From assembly GCA_963833885.1 (NCBI GenBank), contig CAWHZU010000023.1:56935-120934 (forward strand): a DNA stretch of 64,000 nucleotides, in the 5' to 3' direction. Positions 14,069 through 32,648 of this stretch are shown in pieces. This DNA is from an uncultured Actinomycetota bacterium (GTDB taxonomy: Bacteria; Actinomycetota; Actinomycetes; Streptosporangiales; Streptosporangiaceae). How positions within the stretch are numbered: the first letter of the stretch is position 1; each line of letters opens with the position of its first letter. The notes beneath the pieces are model-generated. The model ran no database searches. It saw nothing but the letters and a program-made list of their open reading frames with translations, and was not told the origin of the DNA. A program made the translations under genes and the position numbers.

Positions 14069-15085
14069 CTATGCCTGGCTCCGGACCTGCCCCGCGTCTT
14101 CCCTTCGGTGCCCGCCGGACAGTTCTTCCAGCGCCTGCCGGTCGAACTGGTCGGCGCCGACCGAGGCCGCCTTGCACGGGGTGACCGCCACCAGCGTCGC
14201 GGTCCGGGTGCCGCCCTCGAGGTGGGCTCGCTCCCCCAGCATGGCGCCGGGCCCGCACTCGGCCAGCCGCTCCCCGTCCCGTTCCACCCGGATCACGCCG
14301 TCGAGCAGCAGGTAGACGTCGGTCCCCGGCTCCCCCTGGCGCGCTAGCACGTCCCCCGCCGCCAGGCGGCGGATCGTGGGCTTGCCCTCGCCGTGCATGA
14401 GCTGGACGGACAGTTCCCGCTCCAGCGCCGTCCCCACGGCGGTCACCAGGGCCTTGGACTCCTCGTCGCCCCACGGGGTGTGCCGCCCGAACGACCTGCG
14501 GTACCAGTCGGCGAAGTCGGTCAGCCCGGTTTTGTGCGAGAGCACGCCCTTGGCGTCGTAGATCCAGTGCCGCGGGAACGGGCTGGCGCCGACCACCTCG
14601 GACTCGGCCGTCCCGTCCGCGTGCAGGGTCAGCGACAGCGTGCTCCACACCAGCGGTGCCTGCCACTGTACGAACGGCTTGCGGCGCACCCGCCGCGGCG
14701 CTGGCAGCCCGGTCCGGCCCCCGACGGTCTGCACGAACCGGACCCACCCGTCGCCGCGTTCCGGCTCCCGCTGGATGTCGGGGAGCTGGACCGCCTGGAA
14801 CCGGTAGCTCAGCATGCCGAGCCGGACGGTGGTCGAGCCCATCATGCCGCCGCCGTCGTAGCCGCAGCCGGTGACGGCGCCCGAGGCGTCGACCTCGACC
14901 CAGGCCCGCAGCACGTTCGCGAACCGGAACTTGTCGGTGGCGCGGAGCGCCTCGAGGTCGTCGATCCGGTCCGGCGGCGGGTCGTCGTAGTGCGTGAACC
15001 CGGCGTCGAAGGCCGCACGGGTTCCCCCGGTCACAGCTTCCGACGGAATCCAGGAAAGGGAGGTGATGCAGCTTTCGTATCGCAT
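14069..15085 (-). CDS. Cyclic-nucleotide-binding (CAP_ED) domain protein with an uncharacterised about 230 aa N-terminal domain
   Basis: C-terminus LAAGDVLARQGEPGTDVYLLLDGVIRVERDGERLAECGPGAMLGERAHLEGGTRTATLVAV is a cNMP-binding beta-barrel with the phosphate-binding cassette (GERA). Internal start MRYESC chosen because the upstream ORF extension is Arg-rich junk. Confidence 0.7.
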   Translation of the reverse strand: MRYESCITSLSWIPSEAVTGGTRAAFDAGFTHYDDPPPDRIDDLEALRATDKFRFANVLRAWVEVDASGAVTGCGYDGGGMMGSTTVRLGMLSYRFQAVQLPDIQREPERGDGWVRFVQTVGGRTGLPAPRRVRRKPFVQWQAPLVWSTLSLTLHADGTAESEVVGASPFPRHWIYDAKGVLSHKTGLTDFADWYRRSFGRHTPWGDEESKALVTAVGTALERELSVQLMHGEGKPTIRRLAAGDVLARQGEPGTDVYLLLDGVIRVERDGERLAECGPGAMLGERAHLEGGTRTATLVAVTPCKAASVGADQFDRQALEELSGGHRREDAGQVRSQA

Positions 15086-15186: not shown

Positions 15187-17712
15187 TCATTCGGCGCGGA
15201 GCGCGAGTGCCGGCGGGGTGCGGGCGGCGCTGCGGCCCGGCATCGCCGCCGCCAGGTTGGCGAGCAGGATCGTGCCGAGCGCGACCAGCGTCAGCGCCCC
15301 GGCCGACACGGCCGGGGCGGGCACCGCGTAGATCTGCCGGGCGAACAGGGTCCACAGGAACCGGCCGAGCGCGATGCCGAGCGGCATGCCCACCCCGATC
15401 CCGATGACCGCAGCGACCGACGCCTGCCAGGCCACCGTACCCGCGAGCTGACGCCGGGTGAACCCGAAGGTCTTCAGCACCGCCAGATCCCGCCTGCGCC
15501 GGCGCACCGAGGCGAACAGGGTAAAGGCAAGCCCGGCGAACGCACCCACCGCCAGCCCTCCAGCCAGCAGGTCCGGCGCGGCGCCCATCGAGCGGTAGTT
15601 CGCGATCTGCGCCGGGTGCTGTACCCGGATCACGTTAAGGGTGACGCCCCGGCATGAGCTGCTGGCCGGCAAGGTGGCGGCCGTCCTGGTGACGGCGGTG
15701 GCGACTCGCTGCAGCGACGCGTGGCCGGCCGCGGCCGTCACCCCGGAACGCAGCCGGACCAGGGCCATGGCCGGCGGCCCGTCGCAGCCGGCCGCCATCG
15801 AGCCGAGGATCTGGGCCGAGGCTAGCGCGCCGGTGCCGAGCGAGCTGTGCAGCCCCTGGGACAGCCCGACCGTCGGCATCGTGGCCGTGCCCACGATGAC
15901 CAGACGGGCATGCACGAAGCTGCCGACGCTCGCGGTCACCGTGCCGCCGAGGCGTTGGTGAAGTTGCGCGAGGGTGGCCTGCCCGAGGACGATCTGGTCG
16001 CGGCCGTCAACAGGATGCCCGGACAGGATCGGCGGGGCGACCGTTGCGCGCGGACGGCCGAACAGCAGGGGCACGGCCTGGCCGTCCACGTTGGCGGAGG
16101 CAAACCAGATTAGGGTCCAGGCTGCGACCTCCGGGTCGCTCCGCATCCGGCTCGCCAGCTGTGATTGCGGCACCGTGGCGTAGCCTCCGTCGGCCGAAAT
16201 GCCGTAGGACCAGTTCCACCCGTACAGCGCGGGATGTGAGACCAGCGTGGCCAGGCTGCTGCCGAAGGTGAGCGTGGCCACCACCATGAGCACGGCCAGC
16301 ACGGCTCCCGTTATGGCCGAGCGGGCCGGGACCGCGCCGCGGCCGCGGCCGGGGTCAAACGCGAAGTCGATGCCCGCAACCGCCGCCGCGGGCAAGCCGG
16401 AAGCCGCGGCCAGCCGCGCCGGGCCCGAACCCGCGGCGCCGCGCGCAGACGTCACGGGAGCGGGGCGCCGCACGGCCCGGCGGCCGAGCAGGACGGCCAG
16501 CGCGGCGAGGATGCCGGCCAGGACAAGGAAGCCGGGCCCGAGTACGGTCCAGTCCGGCGCGATGCCCGGCGACGGGTACACCGGCCGCACCGGCCCGATC
16601 GGGCCGATCGGGGAGAGGGCGACGGCGACGCCGACTGCGAGCAGCGAGCCCGCGACGACCGCGGCCAGGAGGCCAGTGAGGCTGTCGGCCACGATCATCG
16701 CGGGGCCGGCGCCCAGCGCCCGGAGCACCTGCGCGTCACCGGAGCCCACCCGGATCAGGCGGGCGATGGCCTGCCCGGCGATCACCAGCGCGGCGATGCC
16801 GGCGACCAGCGCGAACGCGGCCAGCGCGATCCAGTCCGGCTCGATGACACTCTGCGCCTGCGCCTCGGTGACGGAGGCGACCTGGTACAAAGCCGTGGCC
16901 GTCTGCCCAAGCTGGCCGTTGATCTCGCTCTCGACCGTTGCGGCGCCCCCGGTTCCGTGGTCGAGCTGCAGCCCGAACCAGGAGATGCCGCTGCCCGTCC
17001 CAGCGCGCAGCAGCTCCCGGCTGAGCGCGGGGGTGAGCAGCAGTAAGCCCTGCTGGCGGTTGATATCGTCCTGGACGATCTCGCTGTTGAAGTCGACCAG
17101 GCCGGTCAGCCGGGCCCGCACCCTGAGCACCGGCCGCACTCGTGCCGTGCCGAACCCAGGCGACTCCGACTGCGCGCTGGTGTAGAAGCCCAGCGGGACG
17201 GTCTCACCCACGTGCAGGCCGAGCAGCCGGGCCGCTTCGGTGTTCAGCACGAACTGGTCCGGGCGGCGCGGGTCGGCCATCTGCCCCTGGGTCACGGCCA
17301 CCCGGTCCTGCGTGAAGTAAAGGCCGTCGACGCTGGCCAGAACCTCCACCCGGAAGCTGTTGAGGAGGCTGGAGTCGGCCGGCGCCCCGCCGGGCCGCAG
17401 CAAGCTGGTAACCGGCTCAAAAGCACTCTCAACCCGTGTCACGTCGGGCAAGTGCCGGACCGTGGCGGCGAACGGCGGCAGCCTTGAGTACGAGATCTGG
17501 CCCACCGCGTTGTACTGGACGATCAGGTCCGAGGGATCGGTACTGGCCACGAACACCGGGAACGACGACTCGGTCCGACGCGCTGCGGCCGCCGACGCCA
17601 GCGCGACACCGCCGACCAGGCCGACCAGGAGTACCAGCGAAAGGTGGCCGCCCCAGCGTCGGCCGAAGGTAGCCCGAAACCGGTACCAGGCCATCCGCAG
17701 CACAGGTCCCAT
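15187..17712 (-). CDS. FtsX/MacB-like ABC transporter permease, paralogue 1 (about 840 aa, duplicated FtsX modules)
   Basis: Conserved N-terminus AWYRFRATFGRRWGGHLSLVLLVGLVGGVALAS. Large extracytoplasmic domains alternate with 4-TM FtsX bundles. 30-45% identical to the three permeases on the opposite strand. Confidence 0.85.
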   Translation of the reverse strand: MGPVLRMAWYRFRATFGRRWGGHLSLVLLVGLVGGVALASAAAARRTESSFPVFVASTDPSDLIVQYNAVGQISYSRLPPFAATVRHLPDVTRVESAFEPVTSLLRPGGAPADSSLLNSFRVEVLASVDGLYFTQDRVAVTQGQMADPRRPDQFVLNTEAARLLGLHVGETVPLGFYTSAQSESPGFGTARVRPVLRVRARLTGLVDFNSEIVQDDINRQQGLLLLTPALSRELLRAGTGSGISWFGLQLDHGTGGAATVESEINGQLGQTATALYQVASVTEAQAQSVIEPDWIALAAFALVAGIAALVIAGQAIARLIRVGSGDAQVLRALGAGPAMIVADSLTGLLAAVVAGSLLAVGVAVALSPIGPIGPVRPVYPSPGIAPDWTVLGPGFLVLAGILAALAVLLGRRAVRRPAPVTSARGAAGSGPARLAAASGLPAAAVAGIDFAFDPGRGRGAVPARSAITGAVLAVLMVVATLTFGSSLATLVSHPALYGWNWSYGISADGGYATVPQSQLASRMRSDPEVAAWTLIWFASANVDGQAVPLLFGRPRATVAPPILSGHPVDGRDQIVLGQATLAQLHQRLGGTVTASVGSFVHARLVIVGTATMPTVGLSQGLHSSLGTGALASAQILGSMAAGCDGPPAMALVRLRSGVTAAAGHASLQRVATAVTRTAATLPASSSCRGVTLNVIRVQHPAQIANYRSMGAAPDLLAGGLAVGAFAGLAFTLFASVRRRRRDLAVLKTFGFTRRQLAGTVAWQASVAAVIGIGVGMPLGIALGRFLWTLFARQIYAVPAPAVSAGALTLVALGTILLANLAAAMPGRSAARTPPALALRAE

Positions 17713-17886: not shown

Positions 17887-19290
17887 GTGGCTGCTCACTG
17901 GCGGCAGGACCGCGGATGCGAGAGCTTAAATGCCGTGGGACACAGTGCGCTGCCCGAACGAGCCATCGGCGTCTTCCTCGCCGACGACAACCTGATCGTG
18001 CGCGAGGGCGTCCGGGCGCTCATCGAGCGGGATCCGGACCTGCGTGTGGTGGGGGTGGCCGCCGACTACGACGAGGTCATCAGCGGCACCGCCGCCACCG
18101 AGCCGCAGGTCCTGGTCACCGACGTGCGGATGCCGCCGTCCTTCCACCGCGAGGGCATCGACGCGGCCAAGGAGGTGCGCAAGCGCTTCCCGGGCACCGG
18201 CGTAGTGGTGCTGTCGCAGTACGACGACCCCGAGTACGCGGTGTCATTGCTGGCCGAGGGCTCGGCCGGGTACGGCTACCTGCTGAAGGACAGGGTCGCC
18301 GAGGGCAACCAGCTTGCCGACGCCATCCGCAGCGTGGCCACCGGCGGCACCGCGCTCGACCCCGCGATCGTCGAGGCGCTGGTCCAGCCGGTCACCTCGC
18401 CCGGCGAGCTCGCTCCCGCCGAGGAGGAACTGCTCGGCATGATCGCCGAGGGCAAGCCGATCAAGGCGATCGCGGTCGCCAGGCGGGTGCCGCCCGAGGC
18501 GGTGGACGCCGAGGTCGAGGCCGTGTTCGTGAAGCTGGCGGCCGGCGTCGCCCAGGGCAACCCGGCGGCGCTCAACCGGCTCCGGCTGCTGCACCAGGCG
18601 ATCGTCGACCGCGAGGAGCAGGGCGAGACGCTGTCCCGGCTGCTGCCGGGCAGGCTCGCCGAGAAGCTCCGCAACTCCAGGCAGCGGATCGGCGAGACCG
18701 AGACCGTGGTCGTGACCGTGCTGATGAGCGACATCCGGTCCTACTCGACGATCGCCGAGCACGCCGACCCGGCAAAACTCGCAGGTCAGCTCAACACTCA
18801 CCGAGCGGCCATGAACCGTGCGATCCTCGGTGAGGGGGGTACCGTCATGCAGTTTGTCGGCGACGCGGTGATGGCGGTGTTCGGCGCGCCGTTCCCCCAG
18901 CCCGACCACCCCGACCGGGCCGTTGCGGCGGCGGCGGGCATGCACGCGCTGCAGGCCGAGATCAACGCGAGCTGGGCCGCCGAGGGGCTGCACGAGTTCG
19001 GCCTCGGCATCGGGCTGTCCACCGGCCAGGTCGCCGCGGCCCTGCTCGGCTCGGAGGAACGGCTCGAGTACACGCTGGTCGGCGACACGGTCAACCTGTC
19101 CCAGCGGCTGCAGCAGCTCGCGGAGGCTGGCGAGACCGTGCTGTCCGAGCCCACCCACCGCGCCCTGACCGTTCCGTCGGACGCGATCGCGCTGCCAGCC
19201 CAGCTGGTGAAGGGCCGCGATACGCCAATCCTCGCCTACAAGCTTGCCCGCAGCGGCACCCCCGTCGCTGCCGGGCCTATGAACCCGTGA
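17887..19290 (+). CDS. Response regulator with receiver, LuxR-type HTH and class III adenylyl/guanylyl cyclase domains
   Basis: NarL-type REC (VFLADDNLIVREGVRALI...VLVTDVRMPP...VVVLSQYDD...GYLLK). LuxR HTH-like segment (ELLGMIAEGKPIKAIAVARRV...AVFVKLA). CHD cyclase (VVVTVLMSDIRSYSTIAE...FVGDAVMAVFGAP...GIGLSTGQVAAALLGSEERLEYTLVGDTVNLSQRLQ). Confidence 0.85.
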   Translation: MAAHWRQDRGCESLNAVGHSALPERAIGVFLADDNLIVREGVRALIERDPDLRVVGVAADYDEVISGTAATEPQVLVTDVRMPPSFHREGIDAAKEVRKRFPGTGVVVLSQYDDPEYAVSLLAEGSAGYGYLLKDRVAEGNQLADAIRSVATGGTALDPAIVEALVQPVTSPGELAPAEEELLGMIAEGKPIKAIAVARRVPPEAVDAEVEAVFVKLAAGVAQGNPAALNRLRLLHQAIVDREEQGETLSRLLPGRLAEKLRNSRQRIGETETVVVTVLMSDIRSYSTIAEHADPAKLAGQLNTHRAAMNRAILGEGGTVMQFVGDAVMAVFGAPFPQPDHPDRAVAAAAGMHALQAEINASWAAEGLHEFGLGIGLSTGQVAAALLGSEERLEYTLVGDTVNLSQRLQQLAEAGETVLSEPTHRALTVPSDAIALPAQLVKGRDTPILAYKLARSGTPVAAGPMNP

Positions 19291-19315: not shown

Positions 19316-20050
19316 ATGACCGAGAACCGTGCCGCACTGACCATGCGCGGCGTGCGCAAGACCTTCGAGGCCGAGAACGCGCCGGTACGGGCGCTGCGCG
19401 GCGTGGACCTGACCGTGGCTTCGGGCGAGTTCGCCGCGCTGATGGGCCCGTCCGGCTGCGGCAAGTCCACCCTGCTGAACCTCGTGGCCGGGCTCGAGCT
19501 CGCCGACGAGGGAACGATCACGGTCGCCGACGAGGAGGTGACCGGGCGCGGTGAGGACGACCTGGCCCGGCTGCGGCGCAAGCACATCGGCATCATCTTC
19601 CAGTTCTTCAACCTGCTGGAGGGGATGACCGTGCTGGAGAACGTTGCGCTGCCCGCCGTGATCGCCGGCCGCAAGCGCAAGATGGCCGAGACCAGGGCCA
19701 GGGATTTGCTGGACCTGCTCGGCATCGGCGACAAGGCGGCCGCCGTGCCCGGCGTGCTGTCCGGCGGGCAGCGGCAGCGGCTGGCGATCGCCAGGGCGCT
19801 GGCGAACGAGCCGACCCTGCTGCTGGCCGACGAGCCGACCGGCGCGCTGGACTCCGATGGCGGCCAGGAGGTCATCGAGCTGCTGAGCCGACTGCACGCG
19901 GGCGGCCAGACCATCGTCATGGTCACCCACGACGCGCAGGTGGCCGGCGCGGCCGGGCGCATCGTGCGGATGCTCGACGGCCGCATCGTGCAAGCCGACC
20001 CGGGCGGGAGCACCGAGACCGGCGCCGGCATCCCGGTCGAGGCGCACTAG
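19316..20050 (+). CDS. MacB/LolD-type ABC transporter ATP-binding protein
   Basis: Walker A GPSGCGKST, signature LSGGQRQRLAIARAL, Walker B LLLADEPTGALD. Confidence 0.95.
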   Translation: MTENRAALTMRGVRKTFEAENAPVRALRGVDLTVASGEFAALMGPSGCGKSTLLNLVAGLELADEGTITVADEEVTGRGEDDLARLRRKHIGIIFQFFNLLEGMTVLENVALPAVIAGRKRKMAETRARDLLDLLGIGDKAAAVPGVLSGGQRQRLAIARALANEPTLLLADEPTGALDSDGGQEVIELLSRLHAGGQTIVMVTHDAQVAGAAGRIVRMLDGRIVQADPGGSTETGAGIPVEAH

Positions 20051-20072: not shown

Positions 20073-22610
20073 CTGGCGTGGTACCGGCTCCGAGCCACGC
20101 TGCGCCGCCGGCTTGGCGGCTACCTGGCGCTAGCCGTGCTGGTGGGCCTCATCGGCGGCATAGCGCTGGCCTCCGTGACCGCGGCCCGGCGGACCGAGTC
20201 GTCCTACCCGGACTACCTGGCCAGCACGAACCCGTCGAGCCTGATCATTCAGCCGAACTCGAACATCAACGTGTCCTCGGCGGCCCAGGCGAACCAGATC
20301 TACCAGCACATGCTCAGCCGGCTGCGGCACCTGCCGCACGTGACCGGGCTGGCCACGGCCGATGCCGTCAACGCCGCCATGCTGACGCCGCGCGGCGGGT
20401 ACGGCACGGTGCTGTTCACCCAGGTGCAGCTTGTGACCAGCGGTGATGGCATGTTCACCCGCCAGGACCGGCTGACGGTCACCGCAGGCCACCGGGCGGT
20501 GCGCGCGAACCAGGTGGTGGCGACTGCCAGGGCCGCCGCCGTGCTGCACCTGCATGTGGGCTCCCGGCTGCGGCTGGGTGTCTGGGCGTCGAGCCCCAAG
20601 CCCGGGCTGCCGCCGTTCTACCGCAAGCTCGACCTGACCGTGACCGGCATCGGCGTGGTGAGCACGCAGATCGTGCAGGACGACATCGACGCCGACCGCA
20701 CCGGGTTCCTCATCGGCACCCCGGCGCTGGACCGGGAGTTCATGCCGTGCTGCACCGGAACCTCCTATATCGGGCTGCAGGTAGCGGGCGGCGCCCGGTA
20801 CGACGCGGCCGTCGACCAGGGCTACGTGAACCTGGCGACCTCGATCTTCGGCGCCGGATCCGTCCAGTTGCTGCAGCTGCTGCAGGTCTACAACACCTCG
20901 GCGATCGAGGCGGAGGCGCAGCGCGCGATCTACCCGGAGGCGATAGCCCTGGGCGTGTTCGGGCTGATCGCCGGGCTCGCCGCGCTGATCATCGGCGCCC
21001 AGGCGGTGTCCCGGCAGCTTCGCGCGGCCACCGACGACGCGAGCGTCCTGCGGGCGCTCGGCGCCGGCCCGCTGGCCGCCACCGCCGACGGCGTGCTCGG
21101 GGTGCTCGCCGCCGTGGTCGCCGGGGCGCTGCTCGCTGTTGCCGTCGCGATCACGCTGTCCCCGTTCTCGCTTTTCGGGCCCGTCCGGCAGGCACAGCCG
21201 GGGCGGGGGTTCTACGTCGACGCCACGGTGCTCGGGCTGGGCGCGCTCGCGCTCATCCTGGTCCTCGGCGGGGTGGCCGCGGTCATCGGCTACCGCCAGG
21301 CACCACACCGCGCCGCCGCCCGCACGCACGGCGCCGACCGCGGCTCGGCCCTGGTGCGCGCCGGGCTCGGCGCCGGGCTCGGCGCCACCGGCGTGGCCGG
21401 GCTGCGGTTCGCGCTCGAGCCGGGCCGGGGACGGACCGCGGTGCCGGTCAGGTCCGTGCTCACCGGCGCGGTGCTGGCCGTGACTGTGATCGCTGCCACG
21501 CTGACGTTCGGCGCCAGCCTCACCAACCTCATCGCCCGGCCCGCCCTCTACGGCTGGGACTTCAGCTACGCGCTGTACTCGACCGATGGATGGGGACCGT
21601 TCCCGGCGGCGCGGGTCACACCGATTCTTGACCGGGACAAGCTGATCGCCACCAGCACCGGCGTGTATTTCCTGACCGTGCAGATCGACGGGCAGACGGT
21701 CCCGGGGATCCTGTCCCCCGCCCGCCCGGCGGTCGGCCCGCAGATCCTGTCCGGCAGCGGGCTCAACGGTCCCGGCGACATCGTGCTCGGCCCGGCCACG
21801 CTCGCCGCGCTGCACAAGAAGGTCGGCGACAAGGTCACCGTGCGGCTCGGCCCGGTGATCCGCGACGACACGCTGACGGTCTCCGGCACCGCGGCGCTGC
21901 CCGCGCTCGGCGACACGCTCGGGATCCATCCCTCACTGTCCACCGGCGCGATCCTGCCGGTCAGCGCCGTATCCAAGGCCGCGCTTGACGAAGATGGCCC
22001 GGATTCCGGCCCCAACGCGATCCTGATACGGCTGCGGCCCGGCGTCAGCCAGGCCGCCGGGCTGCGGTCGCTGCAGCAGATCGCCAACACCTACAACAAC
22101 ATCGTGCACTCCCCGCAGACGGTCGCCGAGGCGGGCCCGTCGGCGCTGGAGCTCGTGGCCAACGTGCTGCCGGTGCAGCGGCCCGCCGAGATCGTCAACT
22201 ACAAGTCCATGGGCACGATGCCGGTGATCCTGGCCGCAGGCGTGGCCGTCGGCACGGTCGCCGCGCTCGGGCTGGCGCTGGTCACGTCGGTGCGGCGGCG
22301 GCGGCGCGACCTCGCGCTGCTGAAGACGCTGGGCTTCACCCGCAGGCAGCTCGCAACGACCGTCGCCTGGCAGTCCACCGTGGTCGCCATCGTGGGGCTG
22401 GTCATCGGGATACCGCTGGGCATCGCGGTCGGCCGCTGGCTGTGGATCGTGTTCGCCCGCGAGCTGTCCACGGTGCCGGATGCGGTCGTCCCGGCCGGAT
22501 CGGTGGCGCTGGCCGCCGTCGCCGCGCTGGTCCTGGCCAACCTGGTCGCCGCGCTGCCCGGCCGTTCCGCCGCCCGCACCCCGGCCGCCCTGCTGCTCCG
22601 GGCGGAGTGA
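20073..22610 (+). CDS. FtsX/MacB-like permease, paralogue 2 (no canonical start codon in the conserved N-terminus)
   Basis: ORF track starts at GTG 20136 (MLVGLIGG). The in-frame upstream sequence encodes the conserved (L)AWYRLRATLRRRLGGYLALAVLVGLIGG seen in all paralogues. The only candidate initiator is CTG 20073, aligned with the Met of MAWYRF in paralogue 1. No purine-rich RBS. Confidence 0.7.
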   Translation: MAWYRLRATLRRRLGGYLALAVLVGLIGGIALASVTAARRTESSYPDYLASTNPSSLIIQPNSNINVSSAAQANQIYQHMLSRLRHLPHVTGLATADAVNAAMLTPRGGYGTVLFTQVQLVTSGDGMFTRQDRLTVTAGHRAVRANQVVATARAAAVLHLHVGSRLRLGVWASSPKPGLPPFYRKLDLTVTGIGVVSTQIVQDDIDADRTGFLIGTPALDREFMPCCTGTSYIGLQVAGGARYDAAVDQGYVNLATSIFGAGSVQLLQLLQVYNTSAIEAEAQRAIYPEAIALGVFGLIAGLAALIIGAQAVSRQLRAATDDASVLRALGAGPLAATADGVLGVLAAVVAGALLAVAVAITLSPFSLFGPVRQAQPGRGFYVDATVLGLGALALILVLGGVAAVIGYRQAPHRAAARTHGADRGSALVRAGLGAGLGATGVAGLRFALEPGRGRTAVPVRSVLTGAVLAVTVIAATLTFGASLTNLIARPALYGWDFSYALYSTDGWGPFPAARVTPILDRDKLIATSTGVYFLTVQIDGQTVPGILSPARPAVGPQILSGSGLNGPGDIVLGPATLAALHKKVGDKVTVRLGPVIRDDTLTVSGTAALPALGDTLGIHPSLSTGAILPVSAVSKAALDEDGPDSGPNAILIRLRPGVSQAAGLRSLQQIANTYNNIVHSPQTVAEAGPSALELVANVLPVQRPAEIVNYKSMGTMPVILAAGVAVGTVAALGLALVTSVRRRRRDLALLKTLGFTRRQLATTVAWQSTVVAIVGLVIGIPLGIAVGRWLWIVFARELSTVPDAVVPAGSVALAAVAALVLANLVAALPGRSAARTPAALLLRAE

Positions 22611-22634
22611 AGCCATGCGTCAAAGGAACTCGCT

Positions 22635-25151: not shown

Positions 25152-25161
25152 GGGACATGGG

Positions 25162-27747
25162 ATGAGTCGCCTCGATGCCGGCCCCAACCAGCGAGTGAGC
25201 GCCAGCGTGCCCCCGGCACGCGGCGCGCTGCCGCGGCTGGCGTGGTACCGCTTCCGGGCCACGTTCCGCCGCCGCTGGGGCGGCTACCTGGCCTTGGCCG
25301 TGCTGATCGGCCTGGTCGGCGGCGTGGCGATGGGCTCTATGGTGGCTGCCAGGCGCACCGACGCGTCGTACCCGAAGTTCCTGGCCAGCACCAACCCGTC
25401 GGATCTCGTCGTCGAGCCGTTCACGAAGACGAATTACTCGCCCGCCTTCCTCCGCCAGCTGGCCCGGCTGCCGCATGTGACCGGGGTCGCGGCAGCCGTG
25501 CCGCTCACGGCGGCCACCCTCACCCCGAGCGGGAAGCTCGGCACAGTCCTGCTCGCGCACGTGCAGCTGGCCGGCACTCTCGCCGGTGCTGACGGCATCT
25601 TCTCTGCCCAGGACCGGATGACGATCGTGCGAGGACGCGCGGCCGATCCGGCGCGGCCGGACGAGGTGGTGGCTACCCCGGTTGCGGTCGCGCTGCTGCA
25701 CCTGCACGTGGGGTCGCAGGTACGGGTTGGGCTGATCCGCAACTCCGGCAGCGGCGGCCTCTACGGACATGCGGATCTCACGGTCGTGGGGATCGGGGTG
25801 CTCAACACCCAGGTTCTGCAGGACAGCGTCGACTCCGGCCGGACCGGCTTCCTGGTTGGCACGCCCGCGCTCACCCGGGAATTCGCCTCCTGCTGCGCCA
25901 GCGGCATGACCGTCGGCCTGCGCCTGGACGGCGGCGGCACGTACGACACCGCCGTCGGCAACGAGTACCAGCAGCTGCTGGCCACCAGCCCCTACATCTC
26001 GCGCGGCGGATCCGAGCTCTACGTATACGTGACCGCCGCCATCGAGGCTCAGGCGCAGCGGGCGATCCGCCCGGAGGCCATCGCGCTCGCCGTCTTCGGG
26101 CTGATAGCCGGGCTGGCCGCGCTGATCATCGGGACCCAGTCCGTGGCCCGGCAGCTCCGCGCCGGGGCGGACGACGCCGGGGCGCTGCGGGCGTTCGGCG
26201 CCGGACCGGCGATGATCATGGCCGACGGACTGCCCGGCATCGTGGCGGCGCTGGCGGCCGGGGCGCTGCTCGCCGTCGGCGTGGCCGTCGCGCTGTCGCC
26301 GTTCTCGCTGTTCGGGCCGGTGCGTGAAGTGGAACCAGGACACGGCGTCTACCTCGACTGGGCGGTACTCGGGCTCGGGGCCCTCGGACTGGTTCTCCTG
26401 CTCGGCGGGGTGGCGGCCTTGATCGCCTACCGCCAGATGCCGCACCGGCTGGCCGGCCGCGAGCATGAAGCTGACCGGGGACCAGCTGCGGTCCGGGTAG
26501 TGGCTGCCGCCCGGCTCCCGGCCCCGGCAGTGGAGGGAATGCGGCTTGCCCTGGACCCGGGGCGGGGGCGCACCGCGGTACCGGTCCGCTCTGTCCTGGC
26601 GGGCGCGGTACTGGCCATGACAGTGGTCAGCGCCACCCTCACCTTCGGAGCCAGCCTGGCGACGCTGGTCTCGCATCCGGCGCTGTACGGGTGGAACTTC
26701 AGCTACGCCCTCTACGCGGTCCAGGGCTGGGGCAGCGTGCCCGTCAGGTGGGCCGGCCCGCTGCTGGCCCGCGACCGGGCGGTGGCCGCCACGACGGGGG
26801 TGGTCTTCGCGACGGTCCAGATCAACGGCCAGACCGTCCCCGCCATGGTGGCCCCCACCCGTCCGGCGGTGGGCCCGCACATCCTGTCCGGGCACGGGCT
26901 CGACAGCAGCCACGAACTCGTCCTCGGCCCGGCCACCCTGGCTCAGCTGCACCAGCGGGTCGGCAGCACCGTGACGCTGGCCAGCGGCAGCTTCCATGTC
27001 CGGCTCAGGATCGTGGGCACGGCCACAATGCCAGCGATCGGCAGCGTGCTGACCGTTCATACCTCGATGAGCACCGGGGCGCTGTTCTCCACGGCCGTTC
27101 TCCCCGAGGGAGCCGGTTCCGGACCGTTCGGTCCGCTCCTTTATGGGCCCAACGCCATCCTCATCCGGCTGCGGCCCGGGATCAGCCAGGCGGCAGGCCT
27201 GCGATCGATGCAGGCCGTCAGCCGACAGCTCGCCGGAGCGCTGAACTCGCCGCGCGAGGAGGCGGCCACCGGCGGTCTATCGGTCGCGGACGCCGTAGAC
27301 CTGCTGCCGGCCCAGCGGCCGGCCGAGATCGTGAACTACCGGGCCATGGGGGCCATGCCAGCAGTGCTGGCCGGCGGGCTCGCCGCTGGAGCCGTGGCAG
27401 GCCTCGGCCTGACGCTGGTCGCCTCGGTCCGGCGCCGGCGCCGGGACTTCGCGCTCCTGAAAACGCTCGGTTTCACCCGCGGGCAGCTGGCAGGCGCGGT
27501 TGCCTGGCAGTCTTCCGCGATTGCCGTGATCGGCCTGGTGATCGGCGTGCCGGTGGGCATCGCGGCCGGCCGCTGGCTATGGCTGCTATTCGCGCATGAG
27601 CTGTCGGCGGTACCCGACCCGACGGTCCCGGTCGGCTCGATCGCCCTGGCCGGGCTTGGCGCCGTGGCACTGGCCAACGTGGTCGCCGCGCTCCCGGCGC
27701 GGCGGGCCGCGCGAACGCCGGCGGCTGAAGTCCTGAGAGCGGAGTGA
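25162..27747 (+). CDS. FtsX/MacB-like permease, paralogue 4
   Basis: 861 aa, same architecture. GAGGGA RBS. Stop overlaps the kinase start (ATGA). Confidence 0.85.
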   Translation: MSRLDAGPNQRVSASVPPARGALPRLAWYRFRATFRRRWGGYLALAVLIGLVGGVAMGSMVAARRTDASYPKFLASTNPSDLVVEPFTKTNYSPAFLRQLARLPHVTGVAAAVPLTAATLTPSGKLGTVLLAHVQLAGTLAGADGIFSAQDRMTIVRGRAADPARPDEVVATPVAVALLHLHVGSQVRVGLIRNSGSGGLYGHADLTVVGIGVLNTQVLQDSVDSGRTGFLVGTPALTREFASCCASGMTVGLRLDGGGTYDTAVGNEYQQLLATSPYISRGGSELYVYVTAAIEAQAQRAIRPEAIALAVFGLIAGLAALIIGTQSVARQLRAGADDAGALRAFGAGPAMIMADGLPGIVAALAAGALLAVGVAVALSPFSLFGPVREVEPGHGVYLDWAVLGLGALGLVLLLGGVAALIAYRQMPHRLAGREHEADRGPAAVRVVAAARLPAPAVEGMRLALDPGRGRTAVPVRSVLAGAVLAMTVVSATLTFGASLATLVSHPALYGWNFSYALYAVQGWGSVPVRWAGPLLARDRAVAATTGVVFATVQINGQTVPAMVAPTRPAVGPHILSGHGLDSSHELVLGPATLAQLHQRVGSTVTLASGSFHVRLRIVGTATMPAIGSVLTVHTSMSTGALFSTAVLPEGAGSGPFGPLLYGPNAILIRLRPGISQAAGLRSMQAVSRQLAGALNSPREEAATGGLSVADAVDLLPAQRPAEIVNYRAMGAMPAVLAGGLAAGAVAGLGLTLVASVRRRRRDFALLKTLGFTRGQLAGAVAWQSSAIAVIGLVIGVPVGIAAGRWLWLLFAHELSAVPDPTVPVGSIALAGLGAVALANVVAALPARRAARTPAAEVLRAE

Positions 27748-29873
27748 TGATGGACCTGATGACGAACGCCGCCGTCGGCGATCACGCCACCACCGCGCCG
27801 CCTTGGGGCGGCAGTACGGGCCGCCGGCTCGTGGCGGGACTGCTCGTACCCCTGGTCACGATCGTGATCGTCGTGCTCGGGCTGCGTACGGCGGGCCCGC
27901 TCCCGGCCGTGCAGGCCGTCGCCTTCGGCCTGGTAATCGTCGGCGCGCTGTCCGGCGCCATCCTCGCCCGTTCAGCGCAGCGGGTGGCCCTGTGGCAGGT
28001 GGCCTTCGGCGCGCTGGCGGCGTCGGTGGCGCTCACCGCCGCGCGCCTGGGCGACCAGCCCGGCGGGCACCAGGTCGCGCGCGGCGTGGCCACGTTCGCC
28101 GTGCCGGTCGTCATCGCCGTCTCCGTGAACATGCTGCTCGCCCTTCCCGACGGCCGGCTGGCCAGCCGGGGCAGGAGAATCGGCACCGGGATCGCCTATG
28201 CCGCGGCGGCCGCGTCTGGGCTGGTGCTGGCGGCCGCCGGGCGCCCGTTCCCTGCCTGGGCGGTCGCGGTGGCCTGGCCGATCGCCGCGGCCTGCGCTCT
28301 CCCCGCGGTGCGGCTGCGCTACCTGGCTGCTGCCGCGCGAGACCAGCAGCGGATGCAATGGATGGCCGTCGGAGCCGTGCTGGCCGCCGATTCGGCGCTG
28401 GTGGCCGGGGTCCTGCACGTGCTCGTCGGCTGGCCGGGCCCGGTCGCCGCCGTGGCGGCGGGGTGCGCGTCACTGCTCGCGTTCGGCATGATGACCGGCG
28501 AGCTGTCGTCGCTCGGGTCCTACGGCGGCCGGGTCCTGGTCCAGGTACTGTCGATCGCCGGGTTCACCACCGTGGTCGCGGCCATCTACCTGGTGATCGT
28601 GCTCGGCATCGGCAGCGGGCCGAGCGACGCCGCCGATCGCGAGGTCCTCGGGCTCTCGATGCTGGCCGCCGCGGTCGCCGCGATCGGGTACCTGCCGGCC
28701 AGGGACCGGCTGGTGGCGTCGGCCACCCGCTTCGTCTACGGGGCCAAGGAGGCCCCCGACGAGACCCTGCGCACCTTCGGCTCGCGGCTGACCAGGGCGA
28801 TCCCCATGGACGAGCTGCTGCTGCAGCTCGCCGAGTCGCTGCGCAAGACCATGGCGCTGACCAGCGCCGAGGTCTACACCGGTCAGGGAGACGTGCTGGA
28901 ACGCGTCGCCGCGGTGCCGGACACCGGACCGCGGTCGGTCGTGGTGACGGACCGGGAGCGCGCTGTCGTGGCCAGGGCCGGGGTTTCCGGGAACGCCTGG
29001 GCCTCGGTCTGGCTGCCCGGTGTGCTGGACGGGCGGGCCCAGGTCCAGGTCAGGGTCGCGCCGGTCAGCCACGCCGGCGAGCTGCTCGGGCTGATCATCG
29101 CGGAGCGGGCCGCCACCGCCGACACGTTCTCCGACGAGGACGACCGGGTGCTGACCGAGCTGGCCCGGCAAGTCGGCCTGGCAGTGCACAACGCGCGGCT
29201 GGACACCGCGCTGCAGACCACGCTGGACGAGCTGCGCAAGCAGGCCGACGAGCTGCGCCAGTCCCGGGCCCGCATCGTGGCCAGCGGCGACGCCGAGCGC
29301 CGCCGGGTGGAGCGCAACCTGCACGACGGCGCGCAGCAGCACCTGGTGGCGATGGCGGTGAACCTGCGCCTGGCCCGGGACATCATGGCCGACGACCCGG
29401 ACGCGGCCGGCGAGATGATGGAGATGCTCGCCGACGAGGTCAAGAACACGATCCAGGAACTGCGCGAGCTCGCGCACGGCATCTACCCGCCGCTGCTGGC
29501 CGACAGCGGGCTCGGCGAGGCGCTCCGCGCGGCGGCGAACCGCAGCCCGCTGGCGGTCACCGTGACCGCCGACGGGATCGGCCGGTACACCCCGGACATC
29601 GAGGCCGCGGTCTACTTCTGCTGCCTGGAGGCGCTGCAGAACGCCGGCAAGCACGCACCGCAGGCCAGGGTGGCGGTACGGGTCTGGGAGGAGTCGGGCG
29701 GCCTGCTGTTCGCGGTCACCGACGACGGCCCGGGTTTCGACGCGGCCTCCGCTCGCAAGGGCCACGGGTTCGTCAACATGGCTGACCGGCTGGGCGCGAT
29801 CGGCGGCACGGCGCGCTGGGAGTCGCAACCCGGCCACGGCGCCCAGGTCCTGGGTACGATCCCGCTCCTCTGA
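27744..29873 (+). CDS. Multi-TM sensor histidine kinase (HisKA_3/NarL-type) with GAF-like linker
   Basis: About 8 predicted N-terminal TM helices, a GAF-like region, an H-box ERRRVERNLHDGAQQHLVAMAV, and a C-terminal HATPase_c (GFVNMADRLGAIGGT). Confidence 0.85.
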   Translation: MMMDLMTNAAVGDHATTAPPWGGSTGRRLVAGLLVPLVTIVIVVLGLRTAGPLPAVQAVAFGLVIVGALSGAILARSAQRVALWQVAFGALAASVALTAARLGDQPGGHQVARGVATFAVPVVIAVSVNMLLALPDGRLASRGRRIGTGIAYAAAAASGLVLAAAGRPFPAWAVAVAWPIAAACALPAVRLRYLAAAARDQQRMQWMAVGAVLAADSALVAGVLHVLVGWPGPVAAVAAGCASLLAFGMMTGELSSLGSYGGRVLVQVLSIAGFTTVVAAIYLVIVLGIGSGPSDAADREVLGLSMLAAAVAAIGYLPARDRLVASATRFVYGAKEAPDETLRTFGSRLTRAIPMDELLLQLAESLRKTMALTSAEVYTGQGDVLERVAAVPDTGPRSVVVTDRERAVVARAGVSGNAWASVWLPGVLDGRAQVQVRVAPVSHAGELLGLIIAERAATADTFSDEDDRVLTELARQVGLAVHNARLDTALQTTLDELRKQADELRQSRARIVASGDAERRRVERNLHDGAQQHLVAMAVNLRLARDIMADDPDAAGEMMEMLADEVKNTIQELRELAHGIYPPLLADSGLGEALRAAANRSPLAVTVTADGIGRYTPDIEAAVYFCCLEALQNAGKHAPQARVAVRVWEESGGLLFAVTDDGPGFDAASARKGHGFVNMADRLGAIGGTARWESQPGHGAQVLGTIPLL

Positions 29874-30056: not shown

Positions 30057-30449
30057 TCAGCAGGTGGCGAACGAGCCCGAGTTCCGCTCTTCCCAGAGCC
30101 GGCGGATCGTGTCGGAAGCCAGCCGCTCCTTGTTGACGTAGGCGGTCGCGCCGCTCTGGGACGCCGCCGGGGGAAGGTCGGTCGCGTCGTAGGTCGAGCA
30201 CAAGATCACGACCACGTCGGGATGGGCCGCCGTGATCTGCCGCGTGGCCTCGATCCCGCTCATCTCCGGCATGTTGATGTCCATCAGCACGAGAGCCGGG
30301 TGCAGCCGGTCGACCAAGTCGATCGCCTCCCGGCCGCTGGACGCCTCACCGGCGAACTCGAAGCCCTCGAGGCGGCGCAGCACGGCGCGGGCGGCCACGC
30401 GGAATGGCGCCTGATCATCCACGACGAGCACGGAGCGAGGGCTGGTCAC
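30057..30449 (-). CDS. Single-domain response regulator (receiver only, CheY-like)
   Basis: VLVVDDQAPFRVAARAVL...ALVLMDINMPEMSGIEA...VVILCSTYD, 130 aa, no output domain. Confidence 0.85.
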   Translation of the reverse strand: MTSPRSVLVVDDQAPFRVAARAVLRRLEGFEFAGEASSGREAIDLVDRLHPALVLMDINMPEMSGIEATRQITAAHPDVVVILCSTYDATDLPPAASQSGATAYVNKERLASDTIRRLWEERNSGSFATC

Positions 30450-30563: not shown

Positions 30564-31238
30564 TCAACGTTCCTCCCGCTGGCTGAGGAAGACCAGCACC
30601 GCCTTGACCCGGCGGTTAACGTCCTTCTCCTCAGAGAGCCCCAGCTTCGCGAAGATCGAGTTGGTGTGCTTCTCCACGGCGCGCTCGGTGACGAACAAGG
30701 TGGCGGCGATCGCGGAGTTGCTCTTGCCCTGGGCCATCTCGGCCAGGATCTCGGATTCCCGCGGCGTCAGTGAGGACAGGCCCGACTGGCGCTCCTGCGC
30801 GCGGGCGCGCACCAGCTCGTCGACGACCGTGGGGTCGATCACCGAACCGCCCTGCGCCACCACCCGGATCGCCCTGGCCAGCTCGTCCACGCTGCCGATC
30901 CGCTCCTTGAGCAGGTAGCCGCGCCCGGCCGAGCCGTGCTCGAGCAACGCAAGCGCGTACCCGGGGGCGGTGAACTGGGTTAGCACGATCACGCCCATCT
31001 CGGGGTGGTTCTGCCGGATCCAGGCGGCGGCCTTGATGCCCTCGTCGGTGCCGGTGGGCGGCATCCGGATGTCGGTCACGACAACGTCGGGCAGCTGCTC
31101 GCCCACGACAGCAAGTAGCTGCGGCAGGTCGGACGCTGCCCCGACCAGCTCGAAATCCTCGTTGGCCGCGACCAGGCGGGAGATTCCCTCCCTGAGGAGC
31201 ACATGGTCCTCGGCCAGCGCGACCCTGATCTTTCCCAT
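30564..31238 (-). CDS. NarL/LuxR-family response regulator
   Basis: REC plus LuxR HTH (LTPRESEILAEMAQGKSNSAIAATLFVTERAVEKHTNSIFAKL). Start set at MGKIRVALAEDH; ORF 30564-31313 is overextended. Confidence 0.9.
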   Translation of the reverse strand: MGKIRVALAEDHVLLREGISRLVAANEDFELVGAASDLPQLLAVVGEQLPDVVVTDIRMPPTGTDEGIKAAAWIRQNHPEMGVIVLTQFTAPGYALALLEHGSAGRGYLLKERIGSVDELARAIRVVAQGGSVIDPTVVDELVRARAQERQSGLSSLTPRESEILAEMAQGKSNSAIAATLFVTERAVEKHTNSIFAKLGLSEEKDVNRRVKAVLVFLSQREER

Positions 31239-31352
31239 ACCGGATCGGATCGTAGCGCGCCGCCCGGCCACGCGACACCTTCCGGCGCGGCCGGGCCTCA
31301 TCTGTGCCGGCACGTTGGCCGTGCTCAGCCGTCCCGGCGCGGTCCTGGCGCG

Positions 31353-32648
31353 TCAGTCCCCGGCCGACGCTGCTGACGCCTGAGGCACTGGCGCCGGGAT
31401 GTGGCCGTTGGCACCAGCCGGCCCGGTCGGCCTCCTGAGCGTGTCCAGGATCGTGAGCCCCTGCCCGACCATGCCGGCGACGACCTGGCTGACCCCTTCG
31501 GTACCGTTCAGGATCGTGAGGTTCGAGCCAGCGATGCCCTGGGCGGCGGATGCTGAAAGCGCGGGCAGCGCCTCGACAATCCGGTTGGCCGCGATCAGTT
31601 CCTGGTTTCCGTTGGCGAGCGAAGCGGCCTGCGCGTTGTTGGCTGCGGCCTGAGCTTCGGCTCTGGTCCGCTCGGCGTACGCGTCCGCGTCGGCCTGGAT
31701 CCTCGCGGCCTGTGCCTCCGCGGTCGCCAGCGTCGTCCGGCGGTATGCCTCCCCCTCGGCGGCGAACTTGGCCTGGTCGCGTTCGGCTTCAGCAAGAGTG
31801 CGCTGCTTATATGCCTCGGCGTCGGCGGGACGCCGGACTTCGGCCTCCAGCCGCTGCGCAGCCAGATCCGCACGACGCTGGGCCAGCGCGGTCTGCTGCT
31901 CGATGACCTCCTGGGACGCGCGGGCCTCGGCGAGCGGCCCGGACTGCGCGGCCTGGGCCTTGGCCTCCTCGGTCTCGGCCAGGAAGCCGGATTGCTTGAT
32001 CATCAGGTCGCGATCGTATTGCGCCTTCATCGCCGCTGCCTGCTGTTCCTGCTCGGCTGCCCGCTGATCGGCTTGCGCGCGGGCGATGCGCGCCTGGCTT
32101 GCCACCGCCGCAGCGTGCGGGGCAGCAAGGTTGCTGATGTAGCCGGAGGAGTCCTCGATCTCCTGGATCTCCAGGGCATCCACGACGATGCCCAGCTTCT
32201 CCATCTCGCCGTGGCTGCCGTCCTTGACCTCCTGGGCCACCCGGTCCCGTTCCCTGACGATCTGCTCGACCGTAAGCCCGCCGACGATGGACCTGAGATG
32301 CCCGGCGAAGATCCGGCCGACCAGGACCTCCATCCGGCCCTGCTCGGAGAGGAACCGGCGGGCGGCGTTCGCGATGGACACCGGGTCGTCCCCGACCTTG
32401 AACGCTGCCACGGCGCGGACGTTGAGGCGGATGCCCTGGTTCGTGATGCAGTCCTCGACGATCTCGGCTTCCTGAAGCGCCAGCGAGAGCACCCGGGCCC
32501 GCTGCTTGACCGGCATGACGAAGCAGCCGTGGCCGGTCACAATCCGGAACTGGGCGTCCTGCCGCCTGTGCTTGGAGCCGGAGACCAGGAGCGCCTCGTT
32601 GGGCGCAGGTACGTGCCAGAAGAACATATGCGGCTCCCAGTTGCTCAT
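31353..32648 (-). CDS. Flotillin-like SPFH/band-7 protein (FloT/YqiK family)
   Basis: SPFH domain followed by Ala/Glu/Gln-rich coiled-coil flotillin repeats (AEAEAYKQRTLAEAERDQ...). Start ATGA-overlaps the stop of the upstream NfeD-like gene. Confidence 0.85.
   Translation of the reverse strand: MSNWEPHMFFWHVPAPNEALLVSGSKHRRQDAQFRIVTGHGCFVMPVKQRARVLSLALQEAEIVEDCITNQGIRLNVRAVAAFKVGDDPVSIANAARRFLSEQGRMEVLVGRIFAGHLRSIVGGLTVEQIVRERDRVAQEVKDGSHGEMEKLGIVVDALEIQEIEDSSGYISNLAAPHAAAVASQARIARAQADQRAAEQEQQAAAMKAQYDRDLMIKQSGFLAETEEAKAQAAQSGPLAEARASQEVIEQQTALAQRRADLAAQRLEAEVRRPADAEAYKQRTLAEAERDQAKFAAEGEAYRRTTLATAEAQAARIQADADAYAERTRAEAQAAANNAQAASLANGNQELIAANRIVEALPALSASAAQGIAGSNLTILNGTEGVSQVVAGMVGQGLTILDTLRRPTGPAGANGHIPAPVPQASAASAGD

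Follow-up and report, generated by a model that had tools for sequence, protein, structure and literature searches.

The window, i.e. the whole stretch of 64,000 nt that was analysed, harbours a locus headed by a gene on the + strand (17887..19290; 467 aa as the listed ORF) that encodes a receiver (REC), a relic LuxR-type helix-turn-helix (HTH) and a class III nucleotidyl cyclase. An ABC transporter ATPase gene (19316..20050, +) lies directly 3′ of it, as in 78/80 related loci, and is followed by three tandem genes for FtsX-type permeases (20136–22610, 22635–25151 and 25162–27747, all +), the number of permease genes between the ATPase and the kinase varying from 0 to 3 among relatives. The start of the sensor histidine kinase gene (27744..29873, +) overlaps the stop of the upstream permease gene, and the encoded protein carries GAF, HisKA_3 and HATPase_c domains after an N-terminal part of ~320 aa with about 9–10 hydrophobic segments. 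The sequence-only reading had reported a HisKA_3 kinase some 8 kb downstream; it was found 8.45 kb downstream of the cyclase gene, on the same strand and within a conserved cluster. A stand-alone receiver of 130 aa is encoded convergently with the operon (30057..30449, −), next to a canonical NarL-type regulator (30564..31313, −; REC plus GerE at 53.5 bits) with an invariant recognition helix, which is a paralogue of the N-terminal half of the cyclase protein.

On the other side, the gene for a further FtsX-type ABC permease (15187..17712, −) is divergent from the cyclase gene and represents an insertion compared with most relatives, in which the gene for the cyclic-nucleotide-binding (CNB) protein directly adjoins the cyclase gene. 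The CNB protein of the window (14069..15085, −; 338 aa from MRYESC) has a C-terminal cNMP_binding domain with the cassette GERAHLEGGTRTAT, which carries an invariant Arg-Thr, and no Pfam match was obtained in its N-terminal ~240 aa; it is a candidate receptor for the product of the cyclase. A genomic survey covering 81 copies of the cyclase gene in 80 genomes of uncultured Actinomycetota showed that the gene heads a conserved module, i.e. the CNB gene (divergent-adjacent in 57/74 and co-occurring in 69/80 loci), the ABC ATPase (78/80), the kinase (65/66), the canonical regulator (61) and the lone receiver (61). Soil and peat are rich in the host organisms, which are known from metagenomes alone. 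A promoter and terminator scan and an inverted-repeat search of the upstream region gave nothing above chance.

The ORF was located exactly where the sequence-only reading had placed it, with all of the motifs quoted there. Translation probably starts at the GTG at 17935, giving a protein of 451 aa, since the gene calls of homologues begin at the equivalent VGHSALPER, while position 17887 is disfavoured because it is preceded by a pyrimidine-rich stretch and has no RBS. The order of the parts in the Pfam scan is REC, HTH relic and cyclase, with no ATPase domain, and a search for hydrophobic segments in the protein found none. The claim of three domains in one polypeptide holds in so far as a NarL-family receiver, a LuxR-fold segment and a class III cyclase are all present, but the GerE score of the second is below threshold. 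For the analysis of conservation, 143 non-redundant relatives were aligned, which fall into two clades that are ~43% identical to each other (clade A, including the protein of the window, and clade B); P0152, P0195, P0206 and P0208 were left out as frameshifted metagenomic calls. Relatives of ~600 aa (P0179, P0201, P0166 and P0185), which match seemingly from residue ~165, were set aside as polytopic membrane cyclases sharing the coiled-coil/CTE/Gln-type core, but not the HTH.

The receiver domain (17965..18342, +; residues 27–152) matches Response_reg (PF00072) at residues 29–135 with 53.5 bits (E 3e-14; cutoff 30.2), and its motif VLVTDVRMPP (residues 75–84) contains the phospho-acceptor D79 (codon 18121–18123). 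The acidic pocket D33/D34, the phospho-acceptor D79, S110 and K134 are invariant or near-invariant among the 143 relatives. Its description as a NarL-type receiver was borne out by full-length models and structures of the NarL family, i.e. the MadR, MctR and NarL models are collinear with residues 27–218, with NCBIfam scores that are all far under the equivalog cutoffs, and the structures of DevR, VraR and NarL align to residues 27–217. Phosphotransfer from a cognate kinase to this receiver is predicted, with genomic support from the HisKA_3 kinase lying downstream on the same strand in 65/66 loci.

The receiver is followed by a vestigial four-helix HTH of the LuxR/GerE type (18409..18606, +; residues 175–240), in which the fold and the hydrophobic core are retained and which includes ELLGMIAEGKPIKAIA (residues 181–196) and VFVKLA (residues 213–218). 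Relative to NarL/FixJ regulators, six residues are inserted between its helices 3 and 4. GerE matches residues 175–219 at 11.8 bits in the whole protein (E 0.19) and the isolated segment at 15.0 bits, against a cutoff of 23.5; PF00196 (GerE) is absent from the precomputed Pfam annotation of ~240 family clusters. A phmmer search of the PDB with the isolated segment gave nothing significant (NarL CTD at E ~0.9), and Foldseek with the whole model returned cyclase matches alone, and thus no information on the HTH. The relic is undetectable by single-sequence search and is detected by profile–profile and paralogue comparisons: its profile matches the canonical GerE profile at 96.6% in hhalign (E 5.7e-10), and the N-terminal 196 aa of the protein are 41% identical to the in-locus REC+GerE regulator (E 3e-48) in an alignment that spans the HTH. 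Residues 165–243, when folded separately, were confidently predicted to form a LuxR-type four-helix bundle, so that the LuxR fold, for which the sequence-only reading had proposed structure prediction as a check, is indeed adopted.

The DNA-reading surface tells of a different fate from the fold. At eight sites where the canonical paralogues do not vary (R178, N192, S/T202, R204, K208, H209, N211 and S212), the window's clade has A, I, P, E, A, E, E and A, respectively, and the net charge of the recognition helix is −2.9 versus +1.05 in canonical paralogues (whole HTH, −3.2 versus +0.3). Because of these replaced polar or basic positions, three of them now Glu, and the net acidic recognition helix, DNA binding by the relic appears unlikely, and the possible DNA binding suggested for the sub-threshold HTH could not be sustained. 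In addition, NarL K188/V189/K192, which we take from PDB 1JE8 to be the base contacts, align with D/A/E in the cyclase protein. The near-invariant D207, at the position of NarL K188, was considered as a sign of lost DNA binding and rejected, as the canonical paralogue is also acidic (Glu) there; D207 thus has no diagnostic value, and the case is built on the eight paralogue-invariant positions. The helix-3 surface is kept within each clade, with D207 near-invariant and, in clade A, little or no variation at E209 and E211, which implies a specific partner surface. Clade B has Arg at 208, Arg/Gln/Lys at 209 and a neutral recognition helix, and one clade-B locus adjoins a REC+GerE gene and two HisKA_3 kinases.

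Between the relic and the catalytic core lie a flexible hinge and a helix-Pro-helix resembling a cyclase-transducer element (CTE) (18607..18696, +; residues 241–270; LSRLLPGRLAEKL, with the invariant P254). The likeness to a CTE is based on the invariant L249..P254..A258..L261 pattern just before the core and on the AF2 helices at 246–252 and 255–263, and the alignment with 6FHT reaches ~50 residues upstream of the cyclase core. The full AF2 model has a pTM of 0.51, with a pLDDT below 50 at hinge residues 244–253; since its inter-domain arrangement is uncertain, a relay path through the hinge is conjecture.

The catalytic domain (18697..19245, +; residues 271–453) matches Guanylate_cyc (PF00211) at residues 275–432 with 67.9 bits (E 1e-18; cutoff 21.9), and its core superposes on those of Cya2, CyaB and CyaC with TM values of 0.85–0.90. 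Its cyclase motifs are MSDIRSYS (residues 280–287), FVGDAVMAVFGAP (323–335) and LVGDTVNLSQRLQ (397–409). Across the 143 relatives, the metal ligands D282/D326, the phosphate-binding R392, T396 and the transition-state residues N403 and R407 are invariant; in the genomic survey, R392 is His in 3/81 copies. Of the six canonical cyclase residues, five are thus invariant in the alignment; the sixth is the substrate-specifying Lys, which adenylyl cyclases of class IIIa/b pair with Asp or Thr. The Lys position is occupied by Q322 (codon 18850–18852), with the paired T396 present, in all 46 clade-A sequences and in 81/81 copies from the 80 genomes, whereas 96/97 sequences of the sister clade have Lys; the Glu of guanylyl cyclases is absent, with Gln in its place. 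The proposed check of the catalytic residues came out in favour of the metal-binding Asp pair and the transition-state Asn/Arg, but the domain falls short of a full cyclase in its substrate block, which has Gln322 for Lys throughout the clade and makes the label ‘adenylyl’ an assumption. The product is probably cAMP, although Gln in place of the specificity Lys leaves room for a base specificity that is relaxed or altered.

The joint best explanation of these data, which we hold to be probable, is that the cyclase protein is a cytosolic response regulator with a class III nucleotidyl cyclase as its output, i.e. a NarL-type regulator with an added CTE-cyclase, in which the HTH would serve as an adaptor and phosphorylation-driven dimerisation would activate the cyclase. 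It is probably not a transcription factor and an enzyme in one. The ancestor would have been a complete NarL-type regulator with REC and LuxR HTH, a relative of the canonical regulator in the locus, to which a CTE-cyclase module was added at the C-terminus; the HTH, its fold kept and its DNA-reading surface lost, would now link receiver and cyclase as a structural adaptor. D79 would be phosphorylated by the polytopic membrane GAF-HisKA_3 kinase, which may alter the packing of the receiver on the helical domain and favour receiver dimerisation, as in other NarL-family regulators. Class III cyclases need a head-to-tail homodimer to form two active sites, and a relay via helix 4, the hinge and the CTE could join two catalytic domains into such a homodimer. 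The divergently encoded CNB protein would then read the cyclic nucleotide, and the canonical REC+GerE regulator and the lone receiver are probably further targets of this kinase, which would give a branched transcriptional and second-messenger output.

The retained and confidently predicted LuxR fold would also suit a bifunctional regulator, in which the HTH still binds DNA and one phosphorylation event governs the occupancy of promoters as well as the local synthesis of a cyclic nucleotide. Purifying selection has acted on the HTH domain in no fewer than two clades, which are ~43% identical, clade B has a neutral recognition helix with Arg 208 and Arg/Gln/Lys 209, and GerE is the commonest weak Pfam match (36/46 HTH segments, best E 2e-4). 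Considering, however, that the eight paralogue-invariant positions are replaced in the window's clade, that its recognition helix is acidic (−2.9 versus +1.05), that D/A/E stand at the NarL base contacts, that GerE reaches 11.8–15 bits against a cutoff of 23.5 and that a canonical paralogue in the same locus is available for DNA binding, we regard this explanation as quite unlikely. It is highly improbable that the cyclase is inactive or constitutive, with the protein mainly draining phosphoryl groups from the kinase or scaffolding an ABC/kinase complex. The locus does have three receivers per one kinase, extra receivers often act as sinks, and the change from Lys to Gln might lower activity, but the invariance of the catalytic residues save Lys322 in 143 sequences across ~43% identity is unexpected for a dead enzyme, the stand-alone receiver is already there for the role of a sink, and the co-occurrence of the CNB protein in 69/80 loci points to the synthesis of a cyclic nucleotide.

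As to the nucleotide itself, it is possible, if doubtful, that clade A does not contain dedicated adenylyl cyclases and instead makes cGMP, or cAMP and cGMP, with the CNB protein as a cGMP or dual sensor. The invariant Arg-Thr in the CNB cassette would fit this, as the dipeptide is found in the cGMP-selective PKG and CNG sites, but HCN channels, which prefer cAMP, can have Arg-Thr cassettes too. The split between Q322 in all clade-A sequences and copies and Lys in 96/97 sister-clade sequences points in the same direction, as does the nearest solved structure, which is that of the guanylyl cyclase Cya2, in which a change at this single position, E488K, flips guanylyl to adenylyl cyclase (GC to AC). 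Thr at the second specificity position occurs in class IIIb ACs and some GCs alike, and AC as well as GC activity is reported for a class III cyclase of mycobacteria in which the pair is Gln-Asn. Known guanylyl cyclases, on the other hand, have Glu rather than Gln at the Lys-equivalent position. Castro et al. 2005 reportedly found the Gln-type mycobacterial enzyme to be mainly an adenylyl cyclase, which likewise speaks against an altered specificity.

With regard to the preferred reading, i.e. a cyclase under phosphorylation control with the HTH as adaptor, precedents are provided by the receiver-controlled cyanobacterial CyaC and by Dictyostelium ACR, in both of which a REC precedes the class III catalytic domain. 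The core of CyaC (Spirulina/Anabaena) is 27–31% identical to that of the cyclase protein, with a TM of about 0.85. In ACR, a defunct HisKA domain that lacks the His has been recruited to enforce cyclase dimerisation, the same role as we propose for the relic HTH; its receiver aspartates proved dispensable, and therefore an intact receiver is no guarantee of phospho-control. Both proteins are hybrids of kinase, receiver and cyclase, whereas here a stand-alone NarL-type regulator bears the cyclase, with a complete LuxR-fold domain between REC and cyclase and a Gln at the specificity Lys. The best matches of the core are the Synechocystis guanylyl cyclase Cya2 and Pseudomonas aeruginosa CyaB (E 2e-26 and 1e-24; TM 0.89–0.90). 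Their class IIIb-like layout is shared, with either Thr or Gly as the second specificity residue and a CTE, here a putative one, ahead of the core, but they have Glu (Cya2) or Lys (CyaB) in place of Gln and different sensors (CHASE2 and MASE2).

The N-terminal half shares its collinearity, HisKA_3 pairing and four-helix effector fold with NarL/FixJ regulators (NarL, DosR/DevR, VraR/LiaR and DesR; MadR/MctR in NCBIfam), and differs from them in the sub-threshold GerE, the replaced DNA contacts, the acidic helix and the CTE-cyclase extension of 225 aa. The mycobacterial Rv0386, Rv1358 and Rv2488c are likewise actinobacterial, and in them, too, a class III cyclase and a LuxR-type HTH occur in one protein; one or more of them have Gln at the substrate-defining position and mixed AC/GC activity. 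Compared by description, they have the cyclase first, a large ATPase/TPR region in the middle and a recognised LuxR HTH last, and they lack a receiver; the likeness to Rv0386/Rv1358 is only superficial because of this cyclase-ATPase-LuxR architecture, the lack of a receiver and the opposite domain order. PhyR-type regulators, in which REC is fused to a sigma-like domain, have another domain order, are of sigma-like rather than LuxR origin and are without enzymatic output.

The receiver-cyclase with a relic HTH is an uncharacterised yet widespread form of a known type of signalling protein. Receiver-cyclase fusions are known in outline; very few have been studied and, in the literature searched, none of those is from Actinomycetota. 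A domain scan alone either misses the HTH, as in the database annotations, or over-reads it as DNA-binding, as in the sequence-only reading. The family offers a snapshot of a transcription-factor regulator turned second-messenger enzyme, with a parent-like paralogue next door that makes a residue-by-residue comparison feasible, and the natural Lys/Gln split of the sister clades at the purine-specificity position is a test bed for the choice between ATP and GTP. The compact conserved module of membrane kinase, three receivers, cyclase, CNB protein and ABC ATPase joins two-component and cyclic-nucleotide signalling. It is tempting, if rather improbable, to go further and regard the window's clade as a self-contained pathway of uncultured soil Actinomycetota from two-component system to cNMP, in which the HTH is a phospho-switched dimerisation clamp, the Gln322 enzyme is either of dual specificity or a guanylyl cyclase, and the CNB protein with its Arg-Thr cassette, inherited along with it, reads what it makes; if this were true, Gln-Thr would be a new specificity class of class III cyclases, and the module a case of the rare cGMP signalling in bacteria.

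The open reading frame at 17887..19290 (+), which the sequence-only reading described as a fusion of a receiver, a LuxR-type helix-turn-helix (HTH) and an adenylyl cyclase, is real, and every motif quoted from it was found in its place. GTG 17887, the start of the longest ORF, lies downstream of a pyrimidine-rich stretch, while the in-frame GTG 17935 has a better purine-rich stretch (GCGAGAG) before it and is where the gene calls of homologues begin (VGHSALPER...). The longest-ORF start is therefore probably wrong, and the protein, read from GTG 17935, is probably 451 aa long. Pfam matches were found for a receiver (residues 29-135, 53.5 bits) and for a class III cyclase (residues 275-432, 67.9 bits); the GerE/LuxR model reached 11.8 bits (E 0.19), below its cutoff of 23.5. 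Database labels for the family are already generic, i.e. 'adenylate/guanylate cyclase domain-containing protein' or 'response regulator'. One relative, P0122 (561 aa, 57% identical), has a second receiver after the cyclase, so that its order is REC, relic HTH, cyclase, REC.

Residues 27 to ~218 are collinear with the full-length NarL-family models MadR, MctR and NarL as well as with the solved DevR, VraR/LiaR, NarL and DesR structures. Across 143 aligned, non-redundant relatives, comprising 46 sequences of the window protein's own clade A and 97 of its sister clade B, there is little or no variation at the acidic pocket D33/D34, at the phospho-acceptor D79 or at S110 and K134. These residues suggest a functional NarL-type receiver that can be phosphorylated.

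The isolated LuxR-like segment gave no significant match to PDB sequences (E about 0.9), and stronger tests were therefore needed. A canonical REC+GerE regulator lies in the same locus (30564..31313, -; GerE 53.5 bits), and the N-terminal half of the cyclase-regulator is 41% identical to it over 196 residues (E 3e-48), in an alignment that passes through the HTH and ends at residue 217. A profile of the segment from the 46 family members matched a GerE-domain profile built from the syntenic paralogues with an hhalign probability of 96.6% (E 5.7e-10, 50 columns), and GerE was the commonest of the segments' weak Pfam matches (36/46, best E 2e-4). Together these results make the segment a genuine LuxR HTH homologue that retains the fold, and the absence of that fold, named beforehand as a refutation of the original description, is thus not observed.

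DNA binding, which that description had considered possible, fares differently. In the canonical paralogues of related loci the HTH is highly conserved (LTPRE.EIL.EMAQGKSN.AIA...V.ERAVEKHTNSIFAKL), and eight of its polar or basic positions, invariant there, are all replaced in clade A: R178 by A, N192 by I, S/T202 by P, R204 by E, K208 by A, H209 by E, N211 by E and S212 by A. The hydrophobic core is retained (L183, G189, A196, V210, F214 and L217). Net charge over the recognition helix (203-216) is -2.9 in clade A, 0.0 in clade B and +1.05 in the canonical paralogues, and over the whole HTH (175-218) -3.2, -3.9 and +0.3, respectively. In the NarL alignment, the base-contacting residues K188/V189/K192 (PDB 1JE8) stand opposite D/A/E, and the precomputed Pfam annotation of ~240 family clusters holds no GerE hit. 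We conclude that the domain is probably a vestige, with the fold preserved and the DNA-reading surface eroded; residual DNA binding seems quite improbable. It would be somewhat more plausible in clade B, which keeps Arg208 and Arg/Gln/Lys209. The recognition helix ERAVEKHTNSIFAKL of the canonical regulator is nearly invariant over ~60 genomes, which implies that this protein would have a conserved DNA target.

The closest solved relatives of the cyclase are Cya2, CyaB and CyaC (E 2e-26 to 9e-20, TM 0.85-0.90). Its metal ligands D282 and D326, the phosphate-binding Arg392, the transition-state pair N403/R407 and Thr396, the second specificity position, are invariant in the 143 relatives, and the enzyme is very likely active. 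The description of a full cyclase domain holds for these residues but not for the purine-selecting lysine, which is Gln322 in 46/46 clade-A sequences and in 81/81 copies from 80 reference genomes; clade B, about 43% identical, has Lys in 96/97. This position is Lys in adenylyl and Glu in guanylyl cyclases, the single change E488K at the equivalent position turns Cya2 from a guanylyl into an adenylyl cyclase, and mixed activity has been reported for a mycobacterial cyclase whose pair is Gln-Asn. Given Gln322, 'adenylyl' is an assumption. That the Gln-Thr enzyme is instead a dual or guanylyl cyclase feeding a sensor with an Arg-Thr cassette is an unlikely, if conceivable, reading. Just N-terminal to the core, LSRLLPGRLAEKL with its invariant P254 is predicted to form helix-Pro-helix and resembles a cyclase transducer element (CTE), which links the catalytic dimer to the helices that precede it. 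The same Gln-type core (VMQ[FY]VGDAV) is found in four ~600-aa membrane cyclases with a polytopic N-terminus, coiled coil and CTE (P0179, P0201, P0166 and P0185; only P0179 has a weak HisKA_7TM match at the N-terminus), so that the Gln variant also occurs outside the receiver-fused proteins.

The gene is the first of a same-strand cluster comprising an ABC ATPase (19316-20050, +), three tandem FtsX-type permeases (20136-27747, +) and the HisKA_3 kinase already noted downstream (27744-29873, +), in which a ~320-aa polytopic N-terminus with ~9-10 hydrophobic segments precedes GAF, HisKA_3 and HATPase_c. A lone receiver of 130 aa (30057-30449, -) and the canonical regulator are convergent with the cluster, making three receivers for one kinase; directly past the regulator, on the same strand, lies a SPFH/Band 7 family protein of 445 aa (31353-32690, -). 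Upstream are a fourth FtsX permease (15187-17712, -), so that four paralogues of ~830 aa each flank the gene, one divergent and three tandem, and a 338-aa cyclic-nucleotide-binding (CNB) protein (14069-15085, -). The latter has a C-terminal cNMP-binding domain and an N-terminal ~240 aa that match no Pfam family; an Arg-Thr that does not vary among 68 orthologues (RT[SA][ST]) lies in its phosphate-binding cassette, GERAHLEGGTRTAT, and the protein is likely the receptor for the cyclase product.

Relatives are encoded in at least 558 species-level genomes. Among the best 80 related loci from reference genomes, the ABC ATPase lies directly downstream in 78/80, followed on the same strand by the kinase in 65 of 66 loci that extend far enough, and no permease separates the two in 56 of these 65. 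The canonical regulator and the lone receiver are each present in 61 loci and the CNB protein in 69 of 80, its gene being divergent and adjacent in 57 of the 74 with enough upstream sequence. Since permeases vary in number (0 to 3) and position among close relatives, they suggest recent duplication or insertion in an otherwise fixed signalling module, and the synteny raises the question of whether the ABC ATPase partners the kinase membrane domain or FtsX permeases elsewhere in the locus. In the one clade-B locus examined, the gene has two HisKA_3 kinases and a canonical REC+GerE regulator as neighbours; the association with such a kinase and a NarL-type paralogue thus appears in both clades. 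One MAG contig (CAWFUM010000025.1) carries two complete module copies ~135 kb apart (L009 and L011), each comprising an ABC ATPase, three permeases, a kinase, a CNB protein and a cyclase-regulator with 85-86% identity to the window protein. All 80 loci come from uncultured Actinomycetota MAGs save L073, a 2.9-kb contig labelled Myxococcaceae, which encodes a 74% identical protein with the CNB gene adjacent; the label probably reflects a binning error rather than horizontal transfer.

Receiver-controlled class III cyclases are already known from cyanobacterial CyaC and Dictyostelium ACR. The Rv0386-type cyclase-ATPase-LuxR group, named for comparison in the sequence-only reading, does not include this protein, as that group has a different domain order, lacks a receiver and contains an ATPase. 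A 1060-aa cyclase/AAA_16/TPR protein in clade-B locus L004 (20646-21329, +), ~9 kb from the receiver-cyclase gene, shares the mycobacterial Rv0386-type architecture but has no recorded LuxR hit. No description of this receiver, relic HTH and Gln-type cyclase variant was found in the literature searched. What is new is a complete NarL-type regulator with a cyclase appended, an HTH in the middle that is fold-preserved and, by its residues, predicted to be DNA-blind, the clade-wide Gln at the specificity position, and a conserved module coupling the cyclase-regulator to the CNB protein.

Class III cyclase active sites form at the homodimer interface, and NarL-family receivers, once phosphorylated, dimerise and release their effector domain. 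In the simplest model, which we infer for the whole path from kinase to CNB protein, the membrane kinase would phosphorylate D79, and the receiver would dimerise or re-pack against the relic helical domain. Two catalytic domains would then be aligned through helix 4, the hinge and the CTE into a productive dimer. The neighbouring CNB protein would read the cyclase product, and the canonical paralogue would supply the transcriptional branch. The AF2 inter-domain geometry is uncertain (pTM 0.51, hinge pLDDT <50), and the Dictyostelium ACR study indicates that a receiver can keep its aspartates intact without their having a regulatory role. The same enzyme has a defunct HisKA domain that enforces cyclase dimerisation. 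PhyR, whose sigma-like domain binds protein instead of DNA, is listed among the structural neighbours. Both precedents would suit a defunct signalling domain kept as a switchable adaptor.
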